Positions 31,916 to 46,881 are shown, counted from the stretch's first letter. The stretch: 64,000 nt of DNA from Bacteroidales bacterium UBA5762 (GCA_002418865.1 DIEY01000072.1:51881-115880); one strand, 5' to 3'. The notes: generated from the sequence alone by a model not told the origin. Translations and numbers: made by a program.

Positions 31916-33061
31916 TTATAGGTCCATTCTAAAGTTTGCGCTTAAGGTATCAAAAATTGTACCGTCGGTTCCTATCATTCTCTGAGCCGCACTAATCATT
32001 AAACAGGAGTGTACTGGAACGATATCCAGTAGATCGCCGGCATGAATCTTTTCGAGAAAATCTCTCCTGGCCTTTACAACTCCATGTTCCTGCGAAAGCG
32101 TACTTAATATGGCTATAGGATATTGCCCCTGCCATTGTATGAAATCTCCGTGAAAACATACTGCCCCATAATATGCCTTATTGTCAGGTCCAATTAAAAA
32201 ATCTTTCCCTAAATGTATGGCTCCACCATATATCACCGCTCTCTCCTGGTCAGGATATACAGCTACAACAGGACAAACCAAGCGAACGGCAATTTCATCC
32301 TGAGTACAAGAGCCCAAATAATATTGCATCAGATCGTAAAAAATGAAATTACCCGGCCTCATTTCATCTATACCTTCATAACGATTGTCAATACTGCATG
32401 AAGGAGTATCTCCGATCGAATATAGAAATTTCCTTCCCGGATAGTACATTTCAAGATCCCGGAGTAAATGGGCAGTCATGGTAAGAGTAGCCATTCGAAT
32501 TTTTCTGATTTCATCTCTGTTGTGCGTCTGATAGGTATGTCCGTCATGGAACAGGAACCCTTTGATAGAAATTTGATTTTCATCGGCTAACCGAATAATA
32601 GGTAAAATTTCCTCCGCCGAGCATCGAAACCCCGACCTGCCGTGTCCTGTGTCTAATTCGATAAAAAAATTCAGAGGATAGTTCCAAAAATCAAGTTCTG
32701 AGATTTTCCATAAAGATGTTTCGTCTGAAATAAGCAGGGATAAATGTGCTATAGAGGCAATACCCTTAATTTGTTCCCATTCGCGCAGATTTATTGGAAA
32801 TGCAATGGTGATGTCGTCCCAACCATCTTCAGCAAAATACCTAGCCATACTTACCGAAGAAACTGTAATAGCCTTCACTCCTGCTTGTCTGAAAAATCTT
32901 CCTACTCCTCTACTTTGATGCGTCTTGAAATGCGGACGAAATGTAATTCCCGCCTGACGGCTGATCTTCATCATCTTTTGGATATTAGCCTTACATTGAG
33001 CAATATCGAGCACAACTTCGGGTTGGCAAAATGCGAAAGAACTATTCAGAATCTGGCTCAT
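31916..33061 (-). CDS. PLP fold-type III enzyme, D-threonine aldolase/D-serine dehydratase (DSD1)-like
   Basis: RPHFKTH (PLP lysine), ELDTGHGRSG, HDGHTY, EMRPGNFIFYD, SQEHG, PVHSC. Confidence 0.85.
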   Translation of the reverse strand: MSQILNSSFAFCQPEVVLDIAQCKANIQKMMKISRQAGITFRPHFKTHQSRGVGRFFRQAGVKAITVSSVSMARYFAEDGWDDITIAFPINLREWEQIKGIASIAHLSLLISDETSLWKISELDFWNYPLNFFIELDTGHGRSGFRCSAEEILPIIRLADENQISIKGFLFHDGHTYQTHNRDEIRKIRMATLTMTAHLLRDLEMYYPGRKFLYSIGDTPSCSIDNRYEGIDEMRPGNFIFYDLMQYYLGSCTQDEIAVRLVCPVVAVYPDQERAVIYGGAIHLGKDFLIGPDNKAYYGAVCFHGDFIQWQGQYPIAILSTLSQEHGVVKARRDFLEKIHAGDLLDIVPVHSCLMISAAQRMIGTDGTIFDTLSANFRMDL

Positions 33062-39034: not shown

Positions 39035-39559
39035 TTAGTCGATTTTTAATTGATTCAAAACATCCCATCGCGGATCTACTGGAGTTTCCTTAGGTGAGAG
39101 TTCTTCCAAAATTTCGAGATTCTGTTTGTTGCACCCCAAGTTTCCTTGCTCATCGGGTAAGTGTAAACGATGATAAGGCACCAATAAATGGATAAAATCA
39201 TATAGCATTGACGATACATCAACTTCGTGGCTTCCCTGAGGTAAAATTAATACATCATCATCTTCTTCCAAGTATTCTGATCCAAACTTGATAAAAACAA
39301 CTTCTTTCCCAGAAATAGGCTGCATATATTCATAGGCGCAGCGATCACATACCACTTCAACTTCACCATGAATATCAAAACTTAATACAAGCATCTTTTC
39401 TTGTTTTTCTAAGTCCAAATCTACTTTCACTTGGCCAACATGAATTTCCGTTTCTTCGAAACATTCGAAAAAATCGGATCCAATGTCAAAATCGAAATGA
39501 TGATGACCCAATGATAAGCCTTTAAACCCCAGATGATATGGTTTTAATCTATTCGACAC
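39035..39559 (-). CDS. yceD: YceD/DUF177 23S rRNA accumulation protein; GTG start probably 39559
   Basis: FKGL..G.H.FDF, VVCDRC, DPRWDVL; upstream of rpmF; -7 box at 39580-39587. Confidence 0.9.
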   Translation of the reverse strand: MSNRLKPYHLGFKGLSLGHHHFDFDIGSDFFECFEETEIHVGQVKVDLDLEKQEKMLVLSFDIHGEVEVVCDRCAYEYMQPISGKEVVFIKFGSEYLEEDDDVLILPQGSHEVDVSSMLYDFIHLLVPYHRLHLPDEQGNLGCNKQNLEILEELSPKETPVDPRWDVLNQLKID

Positions 39560-39641
39560 CTTTTTCACAAATCGGGGGGCAAAATTACAAAATAAAATGA
39601 ATGAATATGAAAATAGAAATAAAAGGGAAGCATTAGAATGA

Positions 39642-42600
39642 TTACTTGAAGGCTTTTTCAGGCAAACCATCGCCCTGAATGCTTAAACGAGGAAAATATT
39701 CAGGTACTGATCTTCCCATAAGCTTATCAACATACATTTTAGCGAGATATTGACCCAACATAAAGCCTTGTCCACGAAGTCCTACAAATAATCCTAAATC
39801 GGGATCTATAATCATGCGAGGTTCAACATAATAACCTGCCCAAACAGCTTGAAAACCAACCGAAGATAATTCAGGCAACCAATCCACAAATACCTCCGAA
39901 ACGATTTCAAGAAATTCTTTTGTGTTGATTTTCAGATTTTTAGATGTTTCCGCGGGATCTACAGCAGGAGAAGCACATCCAATTACTTGTCCAGTTTCGG
40001 CAAGCTGTTGTCCATAAACTGCAACAAAACCCTTATATTTTCTTCTATCAATCAACATAGGAAGCGGAATATTGTCAACTCCCAGCATTGGCATACGACG
40101 TGTAATAAATGCCTGATGACGAACAGGATACAGGCCTGTCTCTATACCAAGACGACGGGCAAATTGTCCTGCTTCAGGTCCCAAGGCATTGATGAAGATT
40201 TCTGTGCTGTATTCAATGTATTGTTTGGTATGATCTTGCACCAAAACTTGAAATTCATTTCCATTCTTTTTTACATCTATCAATTTACAATCTTCCAAAA
40301 TTGTACCTCCATGCTGAATTCCAATTTGACGGATTAAATCGATGGTTTTGCCCGGAGTAGCTTGCCAACAATTATAAGTAATCTGAGCCGCTATATAGGT
40401 TTTTAAACTTGGATTGAAAAATGGGGAAATACGTTTTGTAAAATCCTTCGGACTGATCATTTCGGCTTTGCTCCATGCCATAGCAGCTTCTAAGGCCTTA
40501 TACATATCTTCATCATGCGCAAAATTTACGTATTGAATGGGATGATAATCAATGTTGCGTAATTGTTGTAATTCAATAAAAATCTGACGATTATGTTCCG
40601 CAATATCCGAAAGCTCAGGAACGCTGAAATTGGGTCGGCCTCCTGCGATATTTCTCCATGAAGAACCACGGCCAAAATTAACCAAAACAGGTTTCTTACT
40701 GGCTTCGGATAAATATCTAAAAAGAGCACTACCACCTATCCCTCCACCAGCTATGATGGCTTCGACCTTGATTTTTTTAATAGGCTTGTTGACGATATAG
40801 TTCTCCTGCACAGGCCTAGGATATAACTCACCCAGTACAAGCTGATTCGACATTGGCCCTCGAGGTGTGGCTTCGCCAACAATCTGAATTCCATAATCCT
40901 TTATTTTACTCTTTAATCGAGGTATGCAACGCTTGCCACGACATGCTCCCATCCCTAAACGAGTAGTATGTTTTATTTCATCAATGGAAATAAATTTCCT
41001 TTCACCTACCACTTCTAATATTTCCTCCATTTTTACGTCATCACAATGACAAATATAACTTTCAGCAGGGACTTGTTCATCATAAGGTTGAAGTTCGAAT
41101 GGTTCGGGATAATTTTCCTTTACTATAAAACTACGCACTTGAGTAAGATCTTCTCCATGCAAGCTAAATGACTTTACACGAGCAATATGGGTTTTATTGG
41201 GTTTTCGAAGAATTTTATCGATCACTCCTTCCCCTAAAACTTTCCCATTATTGTCAACAAGAAAAACCTCTGCATTCTCTTTTACTTCATATTCAATGGG
41301 TAAAAATACCCAGTCGCGTTTTAGATTGTAGCCAAAAATAGCCAAGCCCGGACATTGATACACACAGTCCATACAGCCAATACATTTATTGAAATCGATG
41401 GAAGGCACTGTACTGGTGGAGGATTTGGTTATGGCACCATGAGGACATGAAAAAGCACAAGGATTACAGGCGAATCCATAAAGACAATCGATTAAAACGA
41501 ATCCTTTTGCTTCCATTCGTTCGCGTTCAGGACGGTAAGGCTGATCGATAATTTTTATAGGATGTTGTTGCGAATCGATATATTCTTTCGAAAGTGAGAG
41601 ATATTCATCATAATTCAAGCGTATTCCCATATCCATCAAAATTTCGTAGGCAACCTGCTTTCCCCTCAAAACCGCGCTCGTACCTTCTCCTATACGAATG
41701 GCATCGCCGGCTCCATAACATTTTCGCCCAAAAATTTCATTGCCTTTAATTAGCAATTGATCATCCGAAACCAATCCCGTACAAATATTGATAGCATCGA
41801 TACCTTCTACCACGGTTTCCGTTCCCGGAATAGGATGGAAATTTTCGCAACGCGCTATTACAGCGCCTATAATTCCCGTTGAATCAGAATTGGGAATGGC
41901 TTTAAGAAGTATATGTGAAGTCAAAATAGGGATTCCTAACCTTCTTACTCTATTAGCCTGCACAGGAAACCCCCCTTCGAAAGGCTGAGCTTCCAAAATA
42001 GCCTTTACCCTTGCACCTGCTTGCATCAGCTGGTATGAAGTCAAATATCCTATATTGCCGGCTCCAACCGTTAAAACATTTTTACCCAAAAGGGTAAACT
42101 GCATATTCATCATTTTTTGAACCACAGCAGCCGTGTATACTCCCGGCAAATCATCATTTTCAAAGGTTGGCATAAAGGGTACGGCTCCAGTAGCTACAAC
42201 CAAATATTCTGTATCAATATAATAGATTCTATCGGTTGAAATTTCCTTAACTGCAATCCGCCCTCCCTCCAGAATATCCCATACCGTCGAATTCAGAAAT
42301 ATTCCTTCATGATTAGCTCCCGCAAGGGTTTGGGCAATATCGAAACCACGCATCCCTCCATATTTCTTTTCCTTCTCGAAAAAGAAAAACTGATGAGTTT
42401 GCATTAGAAATTGCCCACCTATCTTACTATTATTATCCACCACCAAATTATCTATTCCATATTCACGCAAAATCTCTCTGGCAGCTAAACCTGCTGGGCC
42501 TGCACCAATAATAACCACTTGTGTTTTATAAACATCAATGGGTTCATTCTTTGCATATTCTATAATATCAGGCCTATAATCATGCGGAATTTCCTTCACT

Positions 42601-42866
42601 TCCTTTACTTCATCCACCAGAGTAATACAAATACGCTTCACCTGGCCATCCACCAACATCTCACATGCACCGCATTTGCCTATACCACACTCCAAACTTC
42701 GCTTACGATTGCGTAAACTATGGCTGTGTACTGGAAATCCGGCCTGATGCAAGGCAGCTGCAATGGTAAAACCTTTTTCGGCTTCGATGATGTGCTCATC
42801 AAACTGAAAAGTTACCTTTTCAGCCTTGGGAATCTCAAGAATGGGATGAGTAGTAATTTTATACAT
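39642..42866 (-). CDS. Multidomain Fe-S flavoprotein: [2Fe-2S] + FAD/NAD oxidoreductase + 2x[4Fe-4S] + BFD-like [2Fe-2S] + DAO-family FAD dehydrogenase
   Basis: CGIGKCGAC..C; GAGPAG and GAGNIG; CLYGFACNPCAFSC and CIGCMDCVYQC; ICHC..GMGACRGKRC; AGGGIGG, PVRHQ, WAGYY, GQGFML. Confidence 0.88.
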   Translation of the reverse strand: MYKITTHPILEIPKAEKVTFQFDEHIIEAEKGFTIAAALHQAGFPVHSHSLRNRKRSLECGIGKCGACEMLVDGQVKRICITLVDEVKEVKEIPHDYRPDIIEYAKNEPIDVYKTQVVIIGAGPAGLAAREILREYGIDNLVVDNNSKIGGQFLMQTHQFFFFEKEKKYGGMRGFDIAQTLAGANHEGIFLNSTVWDILEGGRIAVKEISTDRIYYIDTEYLVVATGAVPFMPTFENDDLPGVYTAAVVQKMMNMQFTLLGKNVLTVGAGNIGYLTSYQLMQAGARVKAILEAQPFEGGFPVQANRVRRLGIPILTSHILLKAIPNSDSTGIIGAVIARCENFHPIPGTETVVEGIDAINICTGLVSDDQLLIKGNEIFGRKCYGAGDAIRIGEGTSAVLRGKQVAYEILMDMGIRLNYDEYLSLSKEYIDSQQHPIKIIDQPYRPERERMEAKGFVLIDCLYGFACNPCAFSCPHGAITKSSTSTVPSIDFNKCIGCMDCVYQCPGLAIFGYNLKRDWVFLPIEYEVKENAEVFLVDNNGKVLGEGVIDKILRKPNKTHIARVKSFSLHGEDLTQVRSFIVKENYPEPFELQPYDEQVPAESYICHCDDVKMEEILEVVGERKFISIDEIKHTTRLGMGACRGKRCIPRLKSKIKDYGIQIVGEATPRGPMSNQLVLGELYPRPVQENYIVNKPIKKIKVEAIIAGGGIGGSALFRYLSEASKKPVLVNFGRGSSWRNIAGGRPNFSVPELSDIAEHNRQIFIELQQLRNIDYHPIQYVNFAHDEDMYKALEAAMAWSKAEMISPKDFTKRISPFFNPSLKTYIAAQITYNCWQATPGKTIDLIRQIGIQHGGTILEDCKLIDVKKNGNEFQVLVQDHTKQYIEYSTEIFINALGPEAGQFARRLGIETGLYPVRHQAFITRRMPMLGVDNIPLPMLIDRRKYKGFVAVYGQQLAETGQVIGCASPAVDPAETSKNLKINTKEFLEIVSEVFVDWLPELSSVGFQAVWAGYYVEPRMIIDPDLGLFVGLRGQGFMLGQYLAKMYVDKLMGRSVPEYFPRLSIQGDGLPEKAFK

Positions 42867-42899: not shown

Positions 42900-42917
42900 T
42901 TGTGAATTATTTCACAG
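42900..42917. promoter_or_regulatory. Rex-like (or CRP/FNR-like) operator TTGTGAA-TTAT-TTCACAG
   Basis: 13/14 defined positions match TTGTGAA-N4-TTCACAA; abuts the -7 box CAAAATTA (42918-42925) of the Fe-S flavoprotein gene. Confidence 0.7.
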
Positions 42918-43098
42918 CAAAATTACTGGGATTATCTTTTATGATTGAATCTTATCTTTAAAAAGTTCCTATTCATAATTATTTCAAATAATAATTCAAA
43001 AAATTGATTTATATTGAATTTCGATAATTCACTACTTGGATATAAAACATTAGAGTCGAAAAAATTAAAAATAACCATAATAGATTTAAACCTCTTCT

Positions 43099-43140: not shown

Positions 43141-44310
43141 ATGTCACTAGATTTCAACGATACTTCAATAGCCTATGCTCGAATGAGTGATACAGATTTG
43201 AAAAAAGCCCAGTTTCTCTTTCGGCTCATTTCATCTCCAAAATTGGTAAATGCAGGCAAACAGCTTTTGAATGGACTTTTAAGAATTCATTTCCCTGTTG
43301 ATTGGGCCATCAAACCAACCGTTTATCATCAGTTTGTTGGTGGAGAAGAGCTTGAGCATTGTAGCCAGATTATAAACTTGTTAAGCCAATACAACGTTAA
43401 ATCCATATTAGACTATTCGGTCGAAGCCATCCAAGATGATGATGCCATAAATAAAGTATTAAACGAAACTCTTCGTTCTATTCGTTTTGCTGCAAAAAAT
43501 CCCGATATTCCTTTTGCCGTGTTTAAACCATCGGCTTTCATTCAACCTCAGATTCTCGACAAAATAGAACATCCCGAAACATTATCCCAGGATGAGCATG
43601 CACAGATTGAACAGTTTAAAAACAGAATCGATATACTTTGTCACGAATCGGCTTCACTTGGGCAACCCATCCTCATAGATGCCGAACATACTTGGTATCA
43701 AGGATTAATTGATGAGATTGCGGAAGAAATGATGTTACAATACAATAAAGAACACACTATTGTATATAATACTTTGCAAATGTATCGCATCGACAGAATT
43801 TCATTTCTTCAACAACAAATTCAAAAAGCCCATGAAAACGGATATTTACTTGGGTTAAAGTTTGTGAGGGGGGCTTATATGGAAAAAGAAAGAGACAGAG
43901 CTCGAAAGTATGGTTATGCATCACCTATACACCCTGATAAAGCCTCTACCGATAGAGCCTTTAATGAAGCACTGAAAATCTCCATAGAAAATATGGATGT
44001 GACTTCTATATTTTGTGGCACACATAACGAAGAAAGCTGCCTTTACCTAACACAACTTATGCAGGAAAGAGACATAAATAAGAATAATAACAACATTTGG
44101 TTTTCACAGTTATATGGCATGAGTGACCATATCAGTTTCAATCTTGCCATGAATGGCTATAATGTTGCTAAATACATACCTTATGGTCCTGTTAAAAATG
44201 TAATGCCTTATCTAATTCGTAGAGCTGAAGAAAACACTTCGGTTGCCGGGCAAACAAGCCGTGAGCTTCGACTCCTTCAAAAAGAAATCGAAAGAAGAAA
44301 ACTAAGATAA
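43141..44310 (+). CDS. Monofunctional proline dehydrogenase (PutB/PRODH)
   Basis: LIDAE, YNTLQMYR, KFVRGAYMEKE, GTHN, QLYGMSD, KYIPYGP, PYLIRRAEEN. Confidence 0.93.
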   Translation: MSLDFNDTSIAYARMSDTDLKKAQFLFRLISSPKLVNAGKQLLNGLLRIHFPVDWAIKPTVYHQFVGGEELEHCSQIINLLSQYNVKSILDYSVEAIQDDDAINKVLNETLRSIRFAAKNPDIPFAVFKPSAFIQPQILDKIEHPETLSQDEHAQIEQFKNRIDILCHESASLGQPILIDAEHTWYQGLIDEIAEEMMLQYNKEHTIVYNTLQMYRIDRISFLQQQIQKAHENGYLLGLKFVRGAYMEKERDRARKYGYASPIHPDKASTDRAFNEALKISIENMDVTSIFCGTHNEESCLYLTQLMQERDINKNNNNIWFSQLYGMSDHISFNLAMNGYNVAKYIPYGPVKNVMPYLIRRAEENTSVAGQTSRELRLLQKEIERRKLR

Positions 44311-44382: not shown

Positions 44383-44961
44383 TCATTTTTGAAGCCGGCC
44401 TAATTTCTCAACTTTGTCGAGCCAATGCTGCCTTGTTTTTTCATCAGATAGCTTAACCTTACTAAAGGTAGTCTTTTTTACAGGTCGAATCCCACAAAAT
44501 TCCAATAGTGCCCTTTTTATAGAATTATGTCCAGGACTTTTGTATATTATCGAATAATACCACTTTGGTGAATCCATAGTAACAATAAGGCGAGCCGATT
44601 TCCCAGTCAACAGTTTATCCCACCTCAATGAATTTTCATGGTATTTAAAACTAAATCCAGGAAGAAAAATTCTGTCGATAAATCCTTTGAAAAGAGCAGG
44701 ATAAGTTCCCCACCAGGTAGGGTAAACGAACACTAAATGGTCTGAGTCTATGATGCTTTGCTGAATGCTGATGAGATCGGGTTCTAATTCCATTCGTTTT
44801 CTATAACCATATTGCAAAATAGGATTAAAATGCAAATCAATAAGATGGATTAGCTTACAATTAGCACCAGTGGCTTCAGCTCCTCTTTTGTAACTTTGAG
44901 CCAAACCGCTGCATAGGCTTTCCTTATCAGGATGCCCATTCAAAATGAGAATATTTTTCAT
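44383..44961 (-). CDS. Flavodoxin-like fold NAD(P)H:quinone oxidoreductase (Flavodoxin_2 family); start 44961
   Basis: ILILNGHP, VFVYPTWWGTYPALFKGFIDR, LLTGKSARLIVT, LLEFCG. Confidence 0.88.
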   Translation of the reverse strand: MKNILILNGHPDKESLCSGLAQSYKRGAEATGANCKLIHLIDLHFNPILQYGYRKRMELEPDLISIQQSIIDSDHLVFVYPTWWGTYPALFKGFIDRIFLPGFSFKYHENSLRWDKLLTGKSARLIVTMDSPKWYYSIIYKSPGHNSIKRALLEFCGIRPVKKTTFSKVKLSDEKTRQHWLDKVEKLGRLQK

Positions 44962-45199
44962 AGTAACTTTACATATTGCATTCAAACTGCAATCAATAAG
45001 CTATCAAATTCTTATTTTTCCCCATTAATTATATCGTATAAACCACCATGACTTGAATAATTAGGATTAGTGGAGTATAAAACACTTCTTGAGGAATTTC
45101 AAAAACAAATGCAGCTTATTTTTTAAGGATAGATGGTTTTGCATAAGAACCAAGGGGATAGCGAAGGCAACAAATTCATTTCAAATATGCTACTAAGGA

Positions 45200-46582
45200 T
45201 CAATGCTCAACCTTTTCGAGTTCAACCGTAAAATGACGCATAATAGGAGCTTCCCATGAAATTCGATATCCATGTTGGATATTCAAACGACGGTCCCAAA
45301 TATTTTTGATTGCAACGGCCACGACGTCCATGTGATTATTAGTGTAAACTCTTCTAGGAATAGCCAATCGAACCGTTTCGAGAGCCGGATAACGGTCCTC
45401 ACGTGTAATAGGATCTCTGTCGGCTAATAAAGTTCCAATTTCTACGGCACGGATTCCGGCTTCAAGGTAGATTTCGATAGCAAGTGTTTGAGCCACATAT
45501 TCTTTACGCGGAACATTAGGCAGAAACTTCAGTGCATCCACAAAAACTGCATGTCCGCCAACAGGTTGTTGTATAGGAATTCCAAAATCGGTGAGTCGTT
45601 TCCCGAGATATTCTACTTGACGTATACGTGTCTCTAAATATTCGAAAGTAGTACTCTCGCGCAGACCTTCTGCCATTGCATTCATATCTCGTCCCGCCAT
45701 GCCTCCATAAGTAATATATCCTTCGAACATGATGTTGAAAGTAGTGGCTTGCCTAAAAATTTCTTCAGAACGAAATCCTATGAATCCACCAATGTTGACA
45801 ATTCCATCTTTTTTACCACTCATAGTAGATAAATCGGCATAAGAATACATTTCGGTAACAATTTCTCGAATCGATTTTTCTTTATATTCTGGCTCACGTA
45901 GTTTGATGAAATAAGCATTTTCTGCAAAACGAGCCGAATCGTAACAAACGGGAATGCCATATTTATTAGCTAAAGCTTTTACTTCACGCAGATTCTGCAT
46001 CGAAACAGGTTGTCCCCCTGAAGTGTTGCAAGTAATAGTCATCAAAATAAAAGGAATATTCTCTTTTGGATTGGATTTTAGCACATCTTCGAGTTTCTGC
46101 AAATCCACATTCCCTTTGAAAGGATGAGAAATACTGGTATCGAAAGCTTCATTTATGCTACAGTCAATAGCTACTGCATGTCGAAACTCAATATGACCTT
46201 TAGTAGTATCGAAAGGCGAATTGCCCGGGATAACGTCACCAGGTTTAACCAGGGCCGAAAATAAAACGTTCTCTGCAGCGCGCCCTTGATGTGTTGGCAG
46301 AAAATATGGGAAACCAAATATTTCATAAATGGCCTGTTTCAGCTTGTAATATGAAGTTGCTCCGGCATAACTTTCATCGCCAAGCATCAGCTCACTCCAC
46401 TGACGGTCACTCATGGCTCCTGTACCAGAATCAGTGATTAAATCAATATACACTTGCTCGCTTTTGAGATTGAATAAATTGTATCTGGCTTGTTTTATCC
46501 ATTCCTCCCTTTGAACCCGCGAGCTCCGATAGATGGGCTCTACCATCTTTATCCGGTAATATTCAGCAAATGGTAATTCCAT
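45200..46582 (-). CDS. tnaA: Tryptophanase (beta-eliminating lyase)
   Basis: IDLITDSGT, PTHQGRAAE, FDTT, SGKKD PLP lysine; C-terminal RHFT has His (tyrosine phenol-lyase has RFFT). Confidence 0.9.
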   Translation of the reverse strand: MELPFAEYYRIKMVEPIYRSSRVQREEWIKQARYNLFNLKSEQVYIDLITDSGTGAMSDRQWSELMLGDESYAGATSYYKLKQAIYEIFGFPYFLPTHQGRAAENVLFSALVKPGDVIPGNSPFDTTKGHIEFRHAVAIDCSINEAFDTSISHPFKGNVDLQKLEDVLKSNPKENIPFILMTITCNTSGGQPVSMQNLREVKALANKYGIPVCYDSARFAENAYFIKLREPEYKEKSIREIVTEMYSYADLSTMSGKKDGIVNIGGFIGFRSEEIFRQATTFNIMFEGYITYGGMAGRDMNAMAEGLRESTTFEYLETRIRQVEYLGKRLTDFGIPIQQPVGGHAVFVDALKFLPNVPRKEYVAQTLAIEIYLEAGIRAVEIGTLLADRDPITREDRYPALETVRLAIPRRVYTNNHMDVVAVAIKNIWDRRLNIQHGYRISWEAPIMRHFTVELEKVEH

Positions 46583-46861: not shown

Positions 46862-46881
46862 TTTGTTAAATAATTAACAAA
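46862..46881. promoter_or_regulatory. Rex-like operator TTTGTTAA-ATAA-TTAACAAA
   Basis: Perfect 8-bp arms with a 4-nt spacer, overlapping the -33/spacer region of the promoter whose -7 box TACCTTTG is at 46889-46896. Confidence 0.65.

Follow-up and report, generated by a model that had tools for sequence, protein, structure and literature searches.

A Single-Chain Flavo-Iron-Sulfur Dehydrogenase of Bacteroidales, Related to Archaeal Dye-Linked Proline Dehydrogenase, as a Candidate Proline/Pyrroline-5-Carboxylate Oxidoreductase

Domain Architecture and Conservation

We analyzed a 64,000-nucleotide stretch of DNA from Bacteroidales bacterium UBA5762 (GCA_002418865.1, DIEY01000072.1:51881-115880), referred to here as the window, and focused on a gene on its minus strand (positions 39642-42866) that encodes a single-chain flavo-iron-sulfur dehydrogenase of the PdhA-F-X-B type (P0001). 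The open reading frame (ORF) is complete, with 1074 codons without interruption, and the modules of the fusion protein are colinear with the pdhA-F-X-B operon of the archaeal dye-linked proline dehydrogenase. An initial annotation of this DNA had proposed that a [2Fe-2S] domain, an oxidoreductase binding flavin adenine dinucleotide (FAD) and nicotinamide adenine dinucleotide (NAD(H)), two [4Fe-4S] motifs, a BFD-like [2Fe-2S] domain, and a DAO-family FAD domain follow one another in one 1074-residue frame, and a Pfam domain scan places these modules where it had put them.

The N-terminal module (42597-42821, residues 16-90) is a [2Fe-2S] domain of the Fer2_4 family (PF13510, E = 2.6e-10) that resembles HcnA and the γ subunit of opine dehydrogenase and has the ligand spacing C60-x4-C65-x2-C68-x11-C80. 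It is followed by an FAD/NAD(H) oxidoreductase module with two dinucleotide folds of the PdhA/SoxA/HcnB/OoxA type (41547-42533; Pyr_redox_2, PF07992, E = 7e-19, from residue 116), in which GAGPAG occupies residues 121-126 and a second GxGxxG motif, GAGNIG, occupies residues 268-273 and precedes the acidic residue E291. The position of PdhF is taken by a 2x[4Fe-4S] ferredoxin module (41331-41504; Pfam Fer4 family matches at residues 466-510) with the motifs C461-x5-C467-x2-C470-x3-C474-P and C495-x2-C498-x2-C501-x3-C505-P. A small β-rich domain (41067-41330), to which no Pfam family matched and whose β strands span residues 510-582 in an AlphaFold2 model, separates the ferredoxin module from the BFD-like [2Fe-2S] domain (40887-41066, residues 604-652; Fer2_BFD, PF04324, E = 2.2e-7), the ligands of which are C606-x-C608-x33-C642-x4-C647. 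The C-terminal module is a DAO-family FAD dehydrogenase domain similar to the β subunit of proline dehydrogenase (39717-40769, residues 703-1046; PF01266, E = 3e-28) and presumably contains the substrate site.

An alignment of 77 full-length orthologs has 373 invariant positions out of 1074, including both GxGxxG motifs and the GGGIGG motif of the DAO domain, and all 16 cluster cysteines are 100% conserved. The four cysteines of the N-terminal domain and those of the BFD-like domain are thus invariant, and the eight cysteines of the [4Fe-4S] motifs remain so in distant homologs at about 30% identity. Within the FAD/NAD(H) module an LQTH-x-FF motif (Q156, H158) is invariant, as are the second GxGxxG motif and its trailing acidic residue; the small β domain is the least conserved module. 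Three cysteines outside the clusters, C362, C833, and C964 (window positions about 41781-41783, 40368-40370, and 39975-39977), are also invariant in the 77 orthologs; C833 and C964 lie in the DAO domain, and the three residues may provide a covalent flavin link or have a redox role. The AlphaFold2 model, built from a 32-sequence alignment, has a mean pLDDT of 83.6 and a pTM of 0.67. Metatranscriptome contigs at least 99% identical to the gene cover it, with DNA carry-over as a possible contribution; runs X24-X26 gave identical numbers and were counted as one. We hold with high confidence that the gene encodes a real, expressed, and conserved single-chain flavo-iron-sulfur dehydrogenase of the PDH/HcnABC family, and we propose a cytoplasmic location for the protein.

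Distribution and Evolution of the Fusion

More than 2500 database proteins match the fusion protein, all of about 1077 residues and with 73-98% identity, and those that have a name are annotated simply as "FAD-dependent oxidoreductase" or the like. A relative is encoded in at least 592 species-representative genomes. Of 201 evenly sampled Bacteroidales genomes from about 148 families, 92 carry the fusion, nearly always as a single copy and at 57-76% identity, and a phylum-wide sample of 301 genomes, mostly of other orders, yielded just one further carrier. Ortholog identity across all searches ranges from 57% to 98%, clustering at 50% collapses the full-length family into one or two clusters, and when only the DAO domain was used as the query, every homolog retrieved was a fragment of this fused family. 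The family is a tight, vertically inherited Bacteroidales gene under strong constraint. Our literature search found no publication on this Bacteroidales protein.

Outside the family, independent fusions with the same module order are found (P0140, P0148, P0165, and P0215; 1128-1218 residues, 24-27% identity), together with proteins of about 700 residues that contain only the A-F-X part. One of the latter (P0139, 713 residues) is followed by a gene encoding a 387-residue DAO protein, with overlapping stop and start codons; this pair is an evolutionary intermediate. Given this A-F-X plus DAO pair and the independent fusions, four-gene, two-gene, and one-gene states all exist, and the single-chain form is not a rarity but a common Bacteroidales gene with independently fused and two-gene counterparts in other lineages. 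The α-type module also occurs in fusions with Fer2, 4Fe-4S, and MvhD/FlpD domains (1310 residues), with flavodoxin (867 residues), and with a GltD/NfnB-like protein (1179 residues; these three fusions are P0138, P0153, and P0171), partners that are typical of low-potential or bifurcating electron transfer. Around the distant relatives P0137 and P0148, the gene neighborhoods were uninformative.

Relationship to Archaeal Proline Dehydrogenase and Other Amine-Oxidizing Systems

Both chains of the Pyrococcus horikoshii enzyme PDH1 (PH1363/PH1364, α4β4; Protein Data Bank (PDB) entry 1y56) are the best solved relatives of the fusion by profile and by fold, which bears out the kinship with PdhA-PdhF-PdhX-PdhB claimed in the initial annotation. 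A single-sequence search of the PDB places 1y56_A first (E = 1.4e-13, residues 14-269), then 1y56_B (E = 1.1e-6) and the α subunit of sarcosine oxidase. With a family profile the ranking is 1y56_B (1.2e-45), 1y56_A (6.9e-39), and SoxA (2.6e-35, a match that stops near residue 377), and glycine oxidase (5e-20), SoxB (1e-14), and L-α-glycerophosphate oxidase (7.5e-9) stand lower. Foldseek comparison of the AlphaFold2 model with the PDB is led by SoxA, 1y56_B (TM 0.79 on the target), and 1y56_A, below which come only amine-oxidizing DAO-family enzymes: DMGDH, SoxB, glycine oxidase, D-arginine dehydrogenase, NikD, MSOX, and L-amino-acid deaminase. We judged the relatedness of the DAO domain by these profile and fold rankings. 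A grouping of this domain with glycerol-3-phosphate (G3P) dehydrogenase, which the initial annotation had named as the result that would speak against it, was not found: glycerophosphate oxidase ranks far below 1y56_B by profile, and no G3P dehydrogenase appears in the Foldseek top 50. When the DAO domain alone is compared with solved chains, 1y56_B is the sole match below E = 0.01 (2.7e-7), with the runner-up at 0.036.

Identity to the archaeal enzyme is only about 20%. Four motifs near the flavin and substrate site, which the initial annotation had put forward, align residue for residue with the β subunit 1y56_B: GSSWRNIAGGR in the fusion with GSTFRCGTGIR, PVRHQAFIT with PYKHQAVIT, WAGYY with WAGYY, and GQGFM with GHGFM. 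The operon order of Thermococcus litoralis is α-γ-δ-β, that is pdhA, pdhF, pdhX, pdhB (PMC4364671), and the consecutive locus tags given there agree with the gene order stated in the initial annotation. The modules and their order in the fusion are those of the dye-linked L-proline dehydrogenases of Thermococcales (Thermococcus profundus PdhA-PdhF-PdhX-PdhB and P. horikoshii PDH2); for PdhF and PdhX the likeness lies in the cysteine clusters and the gene order, with eight cysteines between the α and β modules. The archaeal enzymes are composed of four (or two) subunits and are hyperthermophilic, whereas the fusion is one polypeptide from a mesophilic bacterium and, unlike them, retains a complete [2Fe-2S] ligand set in its N-terminal domain. 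PdhA-F-X-B is thus the closest system in build and working, although the fusion is not a strict member of it, being a single chain whose activity is predicted.

The wider family comprises HCN synthase, opine dehydrogenase, D-hydroxyproline dehydrogenase, and archaeal L-proline dehydrogenase, with defined cysteine motifs (PMC4575208). The fusion shares with HcnABC, OdhABC (OoxAB, NoxAB), and LhpBEF a γ-type [2Fe-2S] protein, an α-type two-Rossmann flavoprotein with a BFD-type cluster, and a β-type DAO flavoprotein (PMC4575208). Its residues C60, C65, C68, and C80 match the γ-type motif Cys-X4-Cys-X2-Cys-X11-12-Cys, and C606, C608, C642, and C647 form a pattern like the α-type motif Cys-X-Cys-X15-20-Cys-X4-Cys with a longer middle spacer (x33) (PMC4575208). 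Those systems, which act on glycine, opines, and D-hydroxyproline, have three subunits, occur in aerobes, and lack the 2x[4Fe-4S] module; in the fusion all parts are joined, and the ferredoxin module and the β domain are inserted. The N-terminal half of SoxA and SoxB of heterotetrameric sarcosine oxidase (SoxABDG) match the fusion strongly by sequence and fold. Unlike sarcosine oxidase, the fusion contains Fe-S clusters and lacks the folate-binding C-terminal half of SoxA as well as SoxD and SoxG (none of the GCV_T, SoxD, and SoxG families is among its Pfam matches), and an oxidase role is implausible because the host is an anaerobe. The PutA-type proline dehydrogenase (Pro_dh TIM barrel), which probably has the same substrate and is often encoded next to the fusion gene, is quinone-linked and has an unrelated fold and cofactor set; the Pfam scan detected no Pro_dh domain in the fusion.

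Genome Context and a Probable Link to Proline

The gene neighborhoods at 80 loci contain no conserved operon, and the fusion gene is mostly monocistronic. The commonest neighbors, downstream, are yceD, rpmF, plsX, and fabH, which we rejected as functional partners since they reflect housekeeping synteny. In the window, a monofunctional PutA-type proline dehydrogenase gene (43141-44310, plus strand; PF01619, E = 1e-74; the 389-residue form) is the divergent neighbor of the fusion gene, and the two share a 274-nucleotide intergenic region. Pro_dh is the immediate neighbor in 19 of the 80 loci, in three arrangements and with two Pro_dh subtypes, which argues against a single inherited accident. 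A short 303-residue form (Pfam E = 1.6e-37) adjoins the fusion gene in 17 loci, convergent downstream in 11 and divergent upstream in five or six, and the 389-residue form is divergent in the window and in one further locus (L001). In four loci the gene for Δ1-pyrroline-5-carboxylate (P5C) dehydrogenase shares the strand of the fusion gene and is found 2.4-7 kb upstream of it; in genome G097 the two genes are adjacent.

The phyletic patterns in the 201 genomes point in the same direction. The fusion is associated with P5C dehydrogenase (TIGR01236; odds ratio (OR) 3.8, p = 2e-5), which suggests proline catabolism as the direction of the reaction. P5C dehydrogenase is kept in 23 of the 70 genomes that lack Pro_dh, and the fusion is present in 18 of these 23 (OR 11.8, p = 2e-5); without Pro_dh, the orphan dehydrogenase must obtain its P5C elsewhere, a role for which the fusion is the natural candidate. 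The genome of UBA5762 encodes Pro_dh, P5C dehydrogenase, and L-piperideine-6-carboxylate (P6C) dehydrogenase. From the genome context and these patterns, proline/P5C is a substrate couple that we favor by a narrow margin over the sum of other possibilities. The fusion is nearly mutually exclusive with ProC: both are found in 13 genomes, the fusion alone in 79, and ProC alone in 72 (OR 0.085, p = 3e-14). ProA is present in five of the 92 fusion carriers, and no ProC, proA, or hisD was found in the UBA5762 genome.

Other features of the neighborhood were recorded alongside. The window encodes a D-serine-dehydratase-like pyridoxal-phosphate enzyme (31916-33061), a flavodoxin-like NAD(P)H quinone reductase (44383-44985), and a tryptophanase-type β-eliminating lyase (45200-46582); the neighborhood is rich in amino-acid catabolism genes, which fits an amino-acid-fermenting, auxotrophic lifestyle. 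An ORF of the YceD family (called at 39035-39670) has 29 nucleotides in common with the 3' end of the fusion gene; the Pfam YceD match begins at residue 96, and the overlap is probably an artifact of the longest-ORF rule, with the true start further downstream. A gene for Fe/Mn superoxide dismutase lies within a few kilobases downstream in 16 of the 80 loci (e.g., L002:13385-13960) and immediately downstream in five, a proximity that may be synteny only. The P6C dehydrogenase gene of UBA5762 (C12:19266-20831; NF050084, 800 bits) has counterparts in 51 of the 201 genomes, which often adjoin the P5C dehydrogenase gene (e.g., G120:C231, G058:C99, G182:C33, and G191:C78).

Putative Regulation by Rex-Type and FNR-Like Boxes

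Upstream of the fusion gene, a -7 promoter box of the Bacteroidota type, TAATTTTG (TAnnTTTG; 42918-42925, minus strand), can be read from the sequence, and a Rex-type palindrome, TGTGAA-ATAA-TTCACA (42901-42916), directly follows it within the region shared with Pro_dh. TAnnTTTG, the -7 consensus of Bacteroides promoters, is visible in most orthologous upstream regions. A search for the Rex-type pattern TGT[GT]AA-N4-TT[CA]ACA within 200 nucleotides upstream of genes identified it before the ortholog in 20 of 76 loci; among 788 other genes of these loci it precedes three, each of them an adjacent Pro_dh gene (Fisher p = 9e-20). The UBA5762 genome contains eight such palindromes where 3.2 are expected, and it encodes a Rex homolog (C97:15611-16240) just downstream of hydrogenase and sensor genes. 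Six of the other palindromes are located at window positions 46864-46879 and at C27:38216, C97:7745, C97:24200, C97:91999, and C101:34720; the genes behind them are M64-ptb-ptb-buk (divergent from tnaA), gdhA, a HydABC-type [FeFe]-hydrogenase operon (NuoE/NuoF/HydA-type), an oxaloacetate-decarboxylase-α-like gene, an SDR gene, and nqrA. The seventh lies before a gene for what looks like an outer-membrane protein and could have arisen by chance. Judged from these operators, the set looks like a compact Bacteroidales Rex regulon.

An FNR-like box, TGA[CT]AA[AT]NATCAT (FNR/CRP-like TGAT-N4-ATCA), takes the place of the Rex-type box in 10 of 75 loci, 12-88 nucleotides upstream of the called start (L021, L051, L052, L060, L062, L064, L068, L073, L075, and L079), and precedes one of 782 other genes (p = 1.5e-10). 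Different lineages seem to have exchanged one regulator for another. Because Rex-type and FNR-like boxes are enriched upstream of it, the fusion gene belongs to an NADH- or redox-responsive regulon, which supports NAD(H) as a redox partner of the enzyme, as does the invariant second GxGxxG motif with its acidic residue. We consider this partner assignment reasonably probable, and slightly more so than the assignment of the substrate.

Proposed Mechanism and the FngABC Precedent

The proline/P5C couple lies at about -120 mV, as known from work on PutA, and NAD+/NADH at -320 mV. Since the former is well above the latter, a fermenting anaerobe cannot drive proline oxidation by NAD+ alone. The host encodes a HydABC-type hydrogenase and Nqr and runs a ferredoxin/NADH economy. 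A precedent for ferredoxin coupling and bifurcation is FngABC of Pyrococcus furiosus, a tightly coupled bifurcating enzyme that catalyzes G3P + 2 NAD+ + 2 Fd(red) <-> DHAP + 2 NADH + 2 Fd(ox), where Fd is ferredoxin and DHAP is dihydroxyacetone phosphate, and that represents a fifth bifurcating enzyme family (Schut, Poole and Adams, Biochemistry, 7 Oct 2026; PMC13689815). It is composed of a subunit with DAO and BFD [2Fe-2S] domains, an NADH-binding flavoprotein, and a [4Fe-4S] subunit; InterPro files FngB with the α subunits of cyanogenesis and opine oxidation (HcnB/OoxA family), and for a long time a homolog of the complex was recognized simply as a "dye-linked" dehydrogenase that had a separate NADH:dye activity (PMC13689815). 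The archaeal proline dehydrogenases have that "dye-linked" status today.

FngABC and the fusion have in common a DAO substrate flavoprotein with a BFD [2Fe-2S] domain, an NADH-type flavoprotein, and a [4Fe-4S] module as the ferredoxin entry, a putative one in the fusion. All cofactor types of FngABC are represented in the fusion, which has an additional [4Fe-4S] cluster and the N-terminal [2Fe-2S] cluster besides. The α module of the fusion may be homologous to FngB, judging by the InterPro family names given in PMC13689815, both hosts are strict anaerobes, and in both systems the substrate couple lies above NAD+/NADH, in the case of the fusion by inference. FngC, a DUF1667 protein, carries a single cluster, whereas the fusion has a canonical 2x[4Fe-4S] ferredoxin module. 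The design logic is shared, but the fusion fails two defining features of FngABC, which are taken up below.

By analogy, we posit that the fusion is an NAD(H)- and ferredoxin-coupled proline:P5C oxidoreductase, an overall explanation that, taken with all its parts, we would put at about even odds. The C-terminal DAO-type FAD domain would oxidize L-proline to P5C, or catalyze the reverse reaction. Electrons would pass through the BFD-type [2Fe-2S] cluster, perhaps by way of an interface flavin mononucleotide as in 1y56, to the FAD of the NAD(H)-binding two-Rossmann module, and the 2x[4Fe-4S] module, probably with the N-terminal [2Fe-2S] cluster, would form a second, low-potential branch to ferredoxin. 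The result would be a three-way flavin-based confurcation/bifurcation, proline + 2 NAD+ + 2 Fd(red) <-> P5C + 2 NADH + 2 Fd(ox), in which P5C would be converted to glutamate by the P5C dehydrogenase of the genome; expression would be controlled by a Rex-type sensor of NADH/NAD+ in many lineages and through an FNR-like box in others. The ferredoxin-coupled, bifurcating part of this mechanism, again drawn by analogy, is tentative. That the fusion is a single-polypeptide bifurcating enzyme that extends the Fng-type family from sugar phosphates to proline/P5C, NAD(H), and ferredoxin is somewhat more doubtful. We are most cautious in speculating that, with the adjacent and co-regulated quinone-linked Pro_dh, the fusion forms a Rex-controlled proline/P5C cycle with a net split of NADH electrons between menaquinone and ferredoxin, which seems improbable.

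Counter-Evidence and Alternative Explanations

Several observations weigh against this proposal. In FngA, which is of the GlpA type, the BFD domain is C-terminal to the DAO domain, whereas the fusion has an amine-oxidizer-like DAO domain preceded by the BFD domain. DUF1667 (PF07892) gave no match in residues 455-600 at E values up to 10 and was found in none of 151 Bacteroidota genomes, and the Gln-Cys-Ile-His (QCIH) motif of FngB is not present as such, the fusion family having Leu-Gln-Thr-His within LQTH-x-FF. If Rex induces the gene when NADH is high, a reaction that consumes NADH would be the better fit than proline oxidation, which produces it, so that the enzyme may run in either direction in vivo. 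The nucleotide in the α subunit of sarcosine oxidase is NAD+ and is not redox-active. Likewise not redox-active is the ATP that the α chain of 1y56 binds according to the title of the structure paper as cited in PMC4575208. BjOdhB2, which groups next to archaeal L-proline dehydrogenase, is an octopine dehydrogenase inactive on proline (PMC4575208). With regard to genome content, the fusion and Pro_dh show no correlated occurrence in the 201 genomes (OR 1.3, p = 0.38), so that Pro_dh adjacency counts as evidence and co-presence does not. P5C dehydrogenase was not detected in 20 of the 92 fusion genomes, and the phyletic statistics ignore kinship among genomes. Finally, the fusion is anti-correlated with hisD almost as strongly as with ProC (OR 0.14, p = 9e-11) and hence tracks a general amino-acid-auxotroph lifestyle; because ProA is also lacking, we take the fusion to mark an amino-acid-auxotrophic, presumably peptide-fermenting lifestyle.

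The diversity of the family exemplified by BjOdhB2, in which subunit kinship is no guide to substrate, also allows an enzyme of the same class with the same electron wire to act on another amine or imino compound, such as hydroxyproline, pipecolate, a D-amino acid, sarcosine or glycine (as in HCN synthase), or an opine-like compound. We regard this as rather unlikely, though it would be compatible with a mostly monocistronic gene for which a conserved catabolic operon was not found. The P6C dehydrogenase of the UBA5762 genome, which denotes a pipecolate/lysine path, prompted us to consider pipecolate, a candidate that we rejected since the fusion and P6C dehydrogenase are not associated (OR 1.5, p = 0.26). 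Against other substrates in general speak the adjacency of Pro_dh in three independent arrangements, the co-occurrence with P5C dehydrogenase, especially in genomes without Pro_dh, and the DAO domain, which finds 1y56_B alone below E = 0.01 and has substrate-site motifs in common with it. An enzyme homologous to FngABC that oxidizes G3P or a polyol phosphate (a fused FngABC/GlpABC) would explain the shared logic of DAO, BFD, pyridine-nucleotide flavoprotein, and Fe-S parts, and also the match of the NCBIfam GlpA models, which is confined to the BFD segment. This BFD segment, however, stands before, not after, the DAO domain, which itself ranks with amine oxidizers (1.2e-45 for 1y56_B vs. 7.5e-9 for L-α-glycerophosphate oxidase, with no G3P dehydrogenase in the Foldseek top 50); neither the protein nor any of the 151 Bacteroidota genomes contains DUF1667, and glycerol genes were not found nearby. 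We consider a G3P or polyol-phosphate dehydrogenase extremely improbable.

The substrate may be as proposed and the electron path simpler: the clusters would then carry electrons along one straight line from the substrate flavin to a single acceptor, be it ferredoxin, menaquinone, or NAD+, and the α nucleotide site would perhaps be structural. Such a non-bifurcating enzyme is possible, although we think it unlikely. It would agree with the ATP named in the title of the 1y56 paper, with the fact that archaeal dehydrogenases of this type have been described only as "dye-linked", with the lack of DUF1667 and QCIH in the fusion, and with the view that FngAB forms without FngC are non-bifurcating (PMC13689815). 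Two Fe-S branches and two flavin domains, however, exceed the needs of a linear wire; the NADH-type Rossmann motif is invariant, the gene lies within a Rex-type regulon, the transfer of electrons from proline to NAD+ or ferredoxin alone is thermodynamically uphill, and FngABC was itself long taken for a plain "dye-linked" enzyme. A role in the opposite direction, as a biosynthetic or electron-sink P5C reductase that replaces ProC and reduces P5C to proline with NADH, with or without reduction of ferredoxin, would account for the complementary distribution with ProC, for the lack of ProC in the UBA5762 genome, and for a Rex control that suggests NADH consumption. We demoted this displacement to a weak rival on the strength of the hisD control, which attributes most of the signal to general auxotrophy, although the anti-correlation with ProC persists among hisD-positive genomes (OR 0.07, p = 3e-6). 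With ProA in so few carriers, glutamate cannot supply P5C; the association with the catabolic P5C dehydrogenase is positive, and a protein of 1074 residues with about six expected cofactors is an unlikely stand-in for a simple NAD(P)H reductase. The replacement of ProC thus seems quite improbable, and we retain the NAD(H)- and ferredoxin-coupled proline:P5C oxidoreductase as our explanation.

Implications

If this explanation is true, about half of Bacteroidales families oxidize proline, or reduce P5C to it, by an enzyme annotated just as "FAD-dependent oxidoreductase", and metabolic reconstructions would miss this proline route because the enzyme is hidden under a generic annotation. Most carriers are anaerobes with amino-acid auxotrophies that live in sediments, digesters, wastewater, and oil reservoirs. 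NAD+ plus ferredoxin would be a testable answer to the acceptor problem of the archaeal "dye-linked" proline dehydrogenases, and the Fng-type bifurcating family would be widened to amino acids. With its cofactors all on one chain, a bifurcating enzyme encoded by a single gene would also be handy for expression, mutagenesis, spectroscopy, and structure determination. Finally, the conserved Rex-type operator adds a well-supported member to the Bacteroidales Rex regulon.

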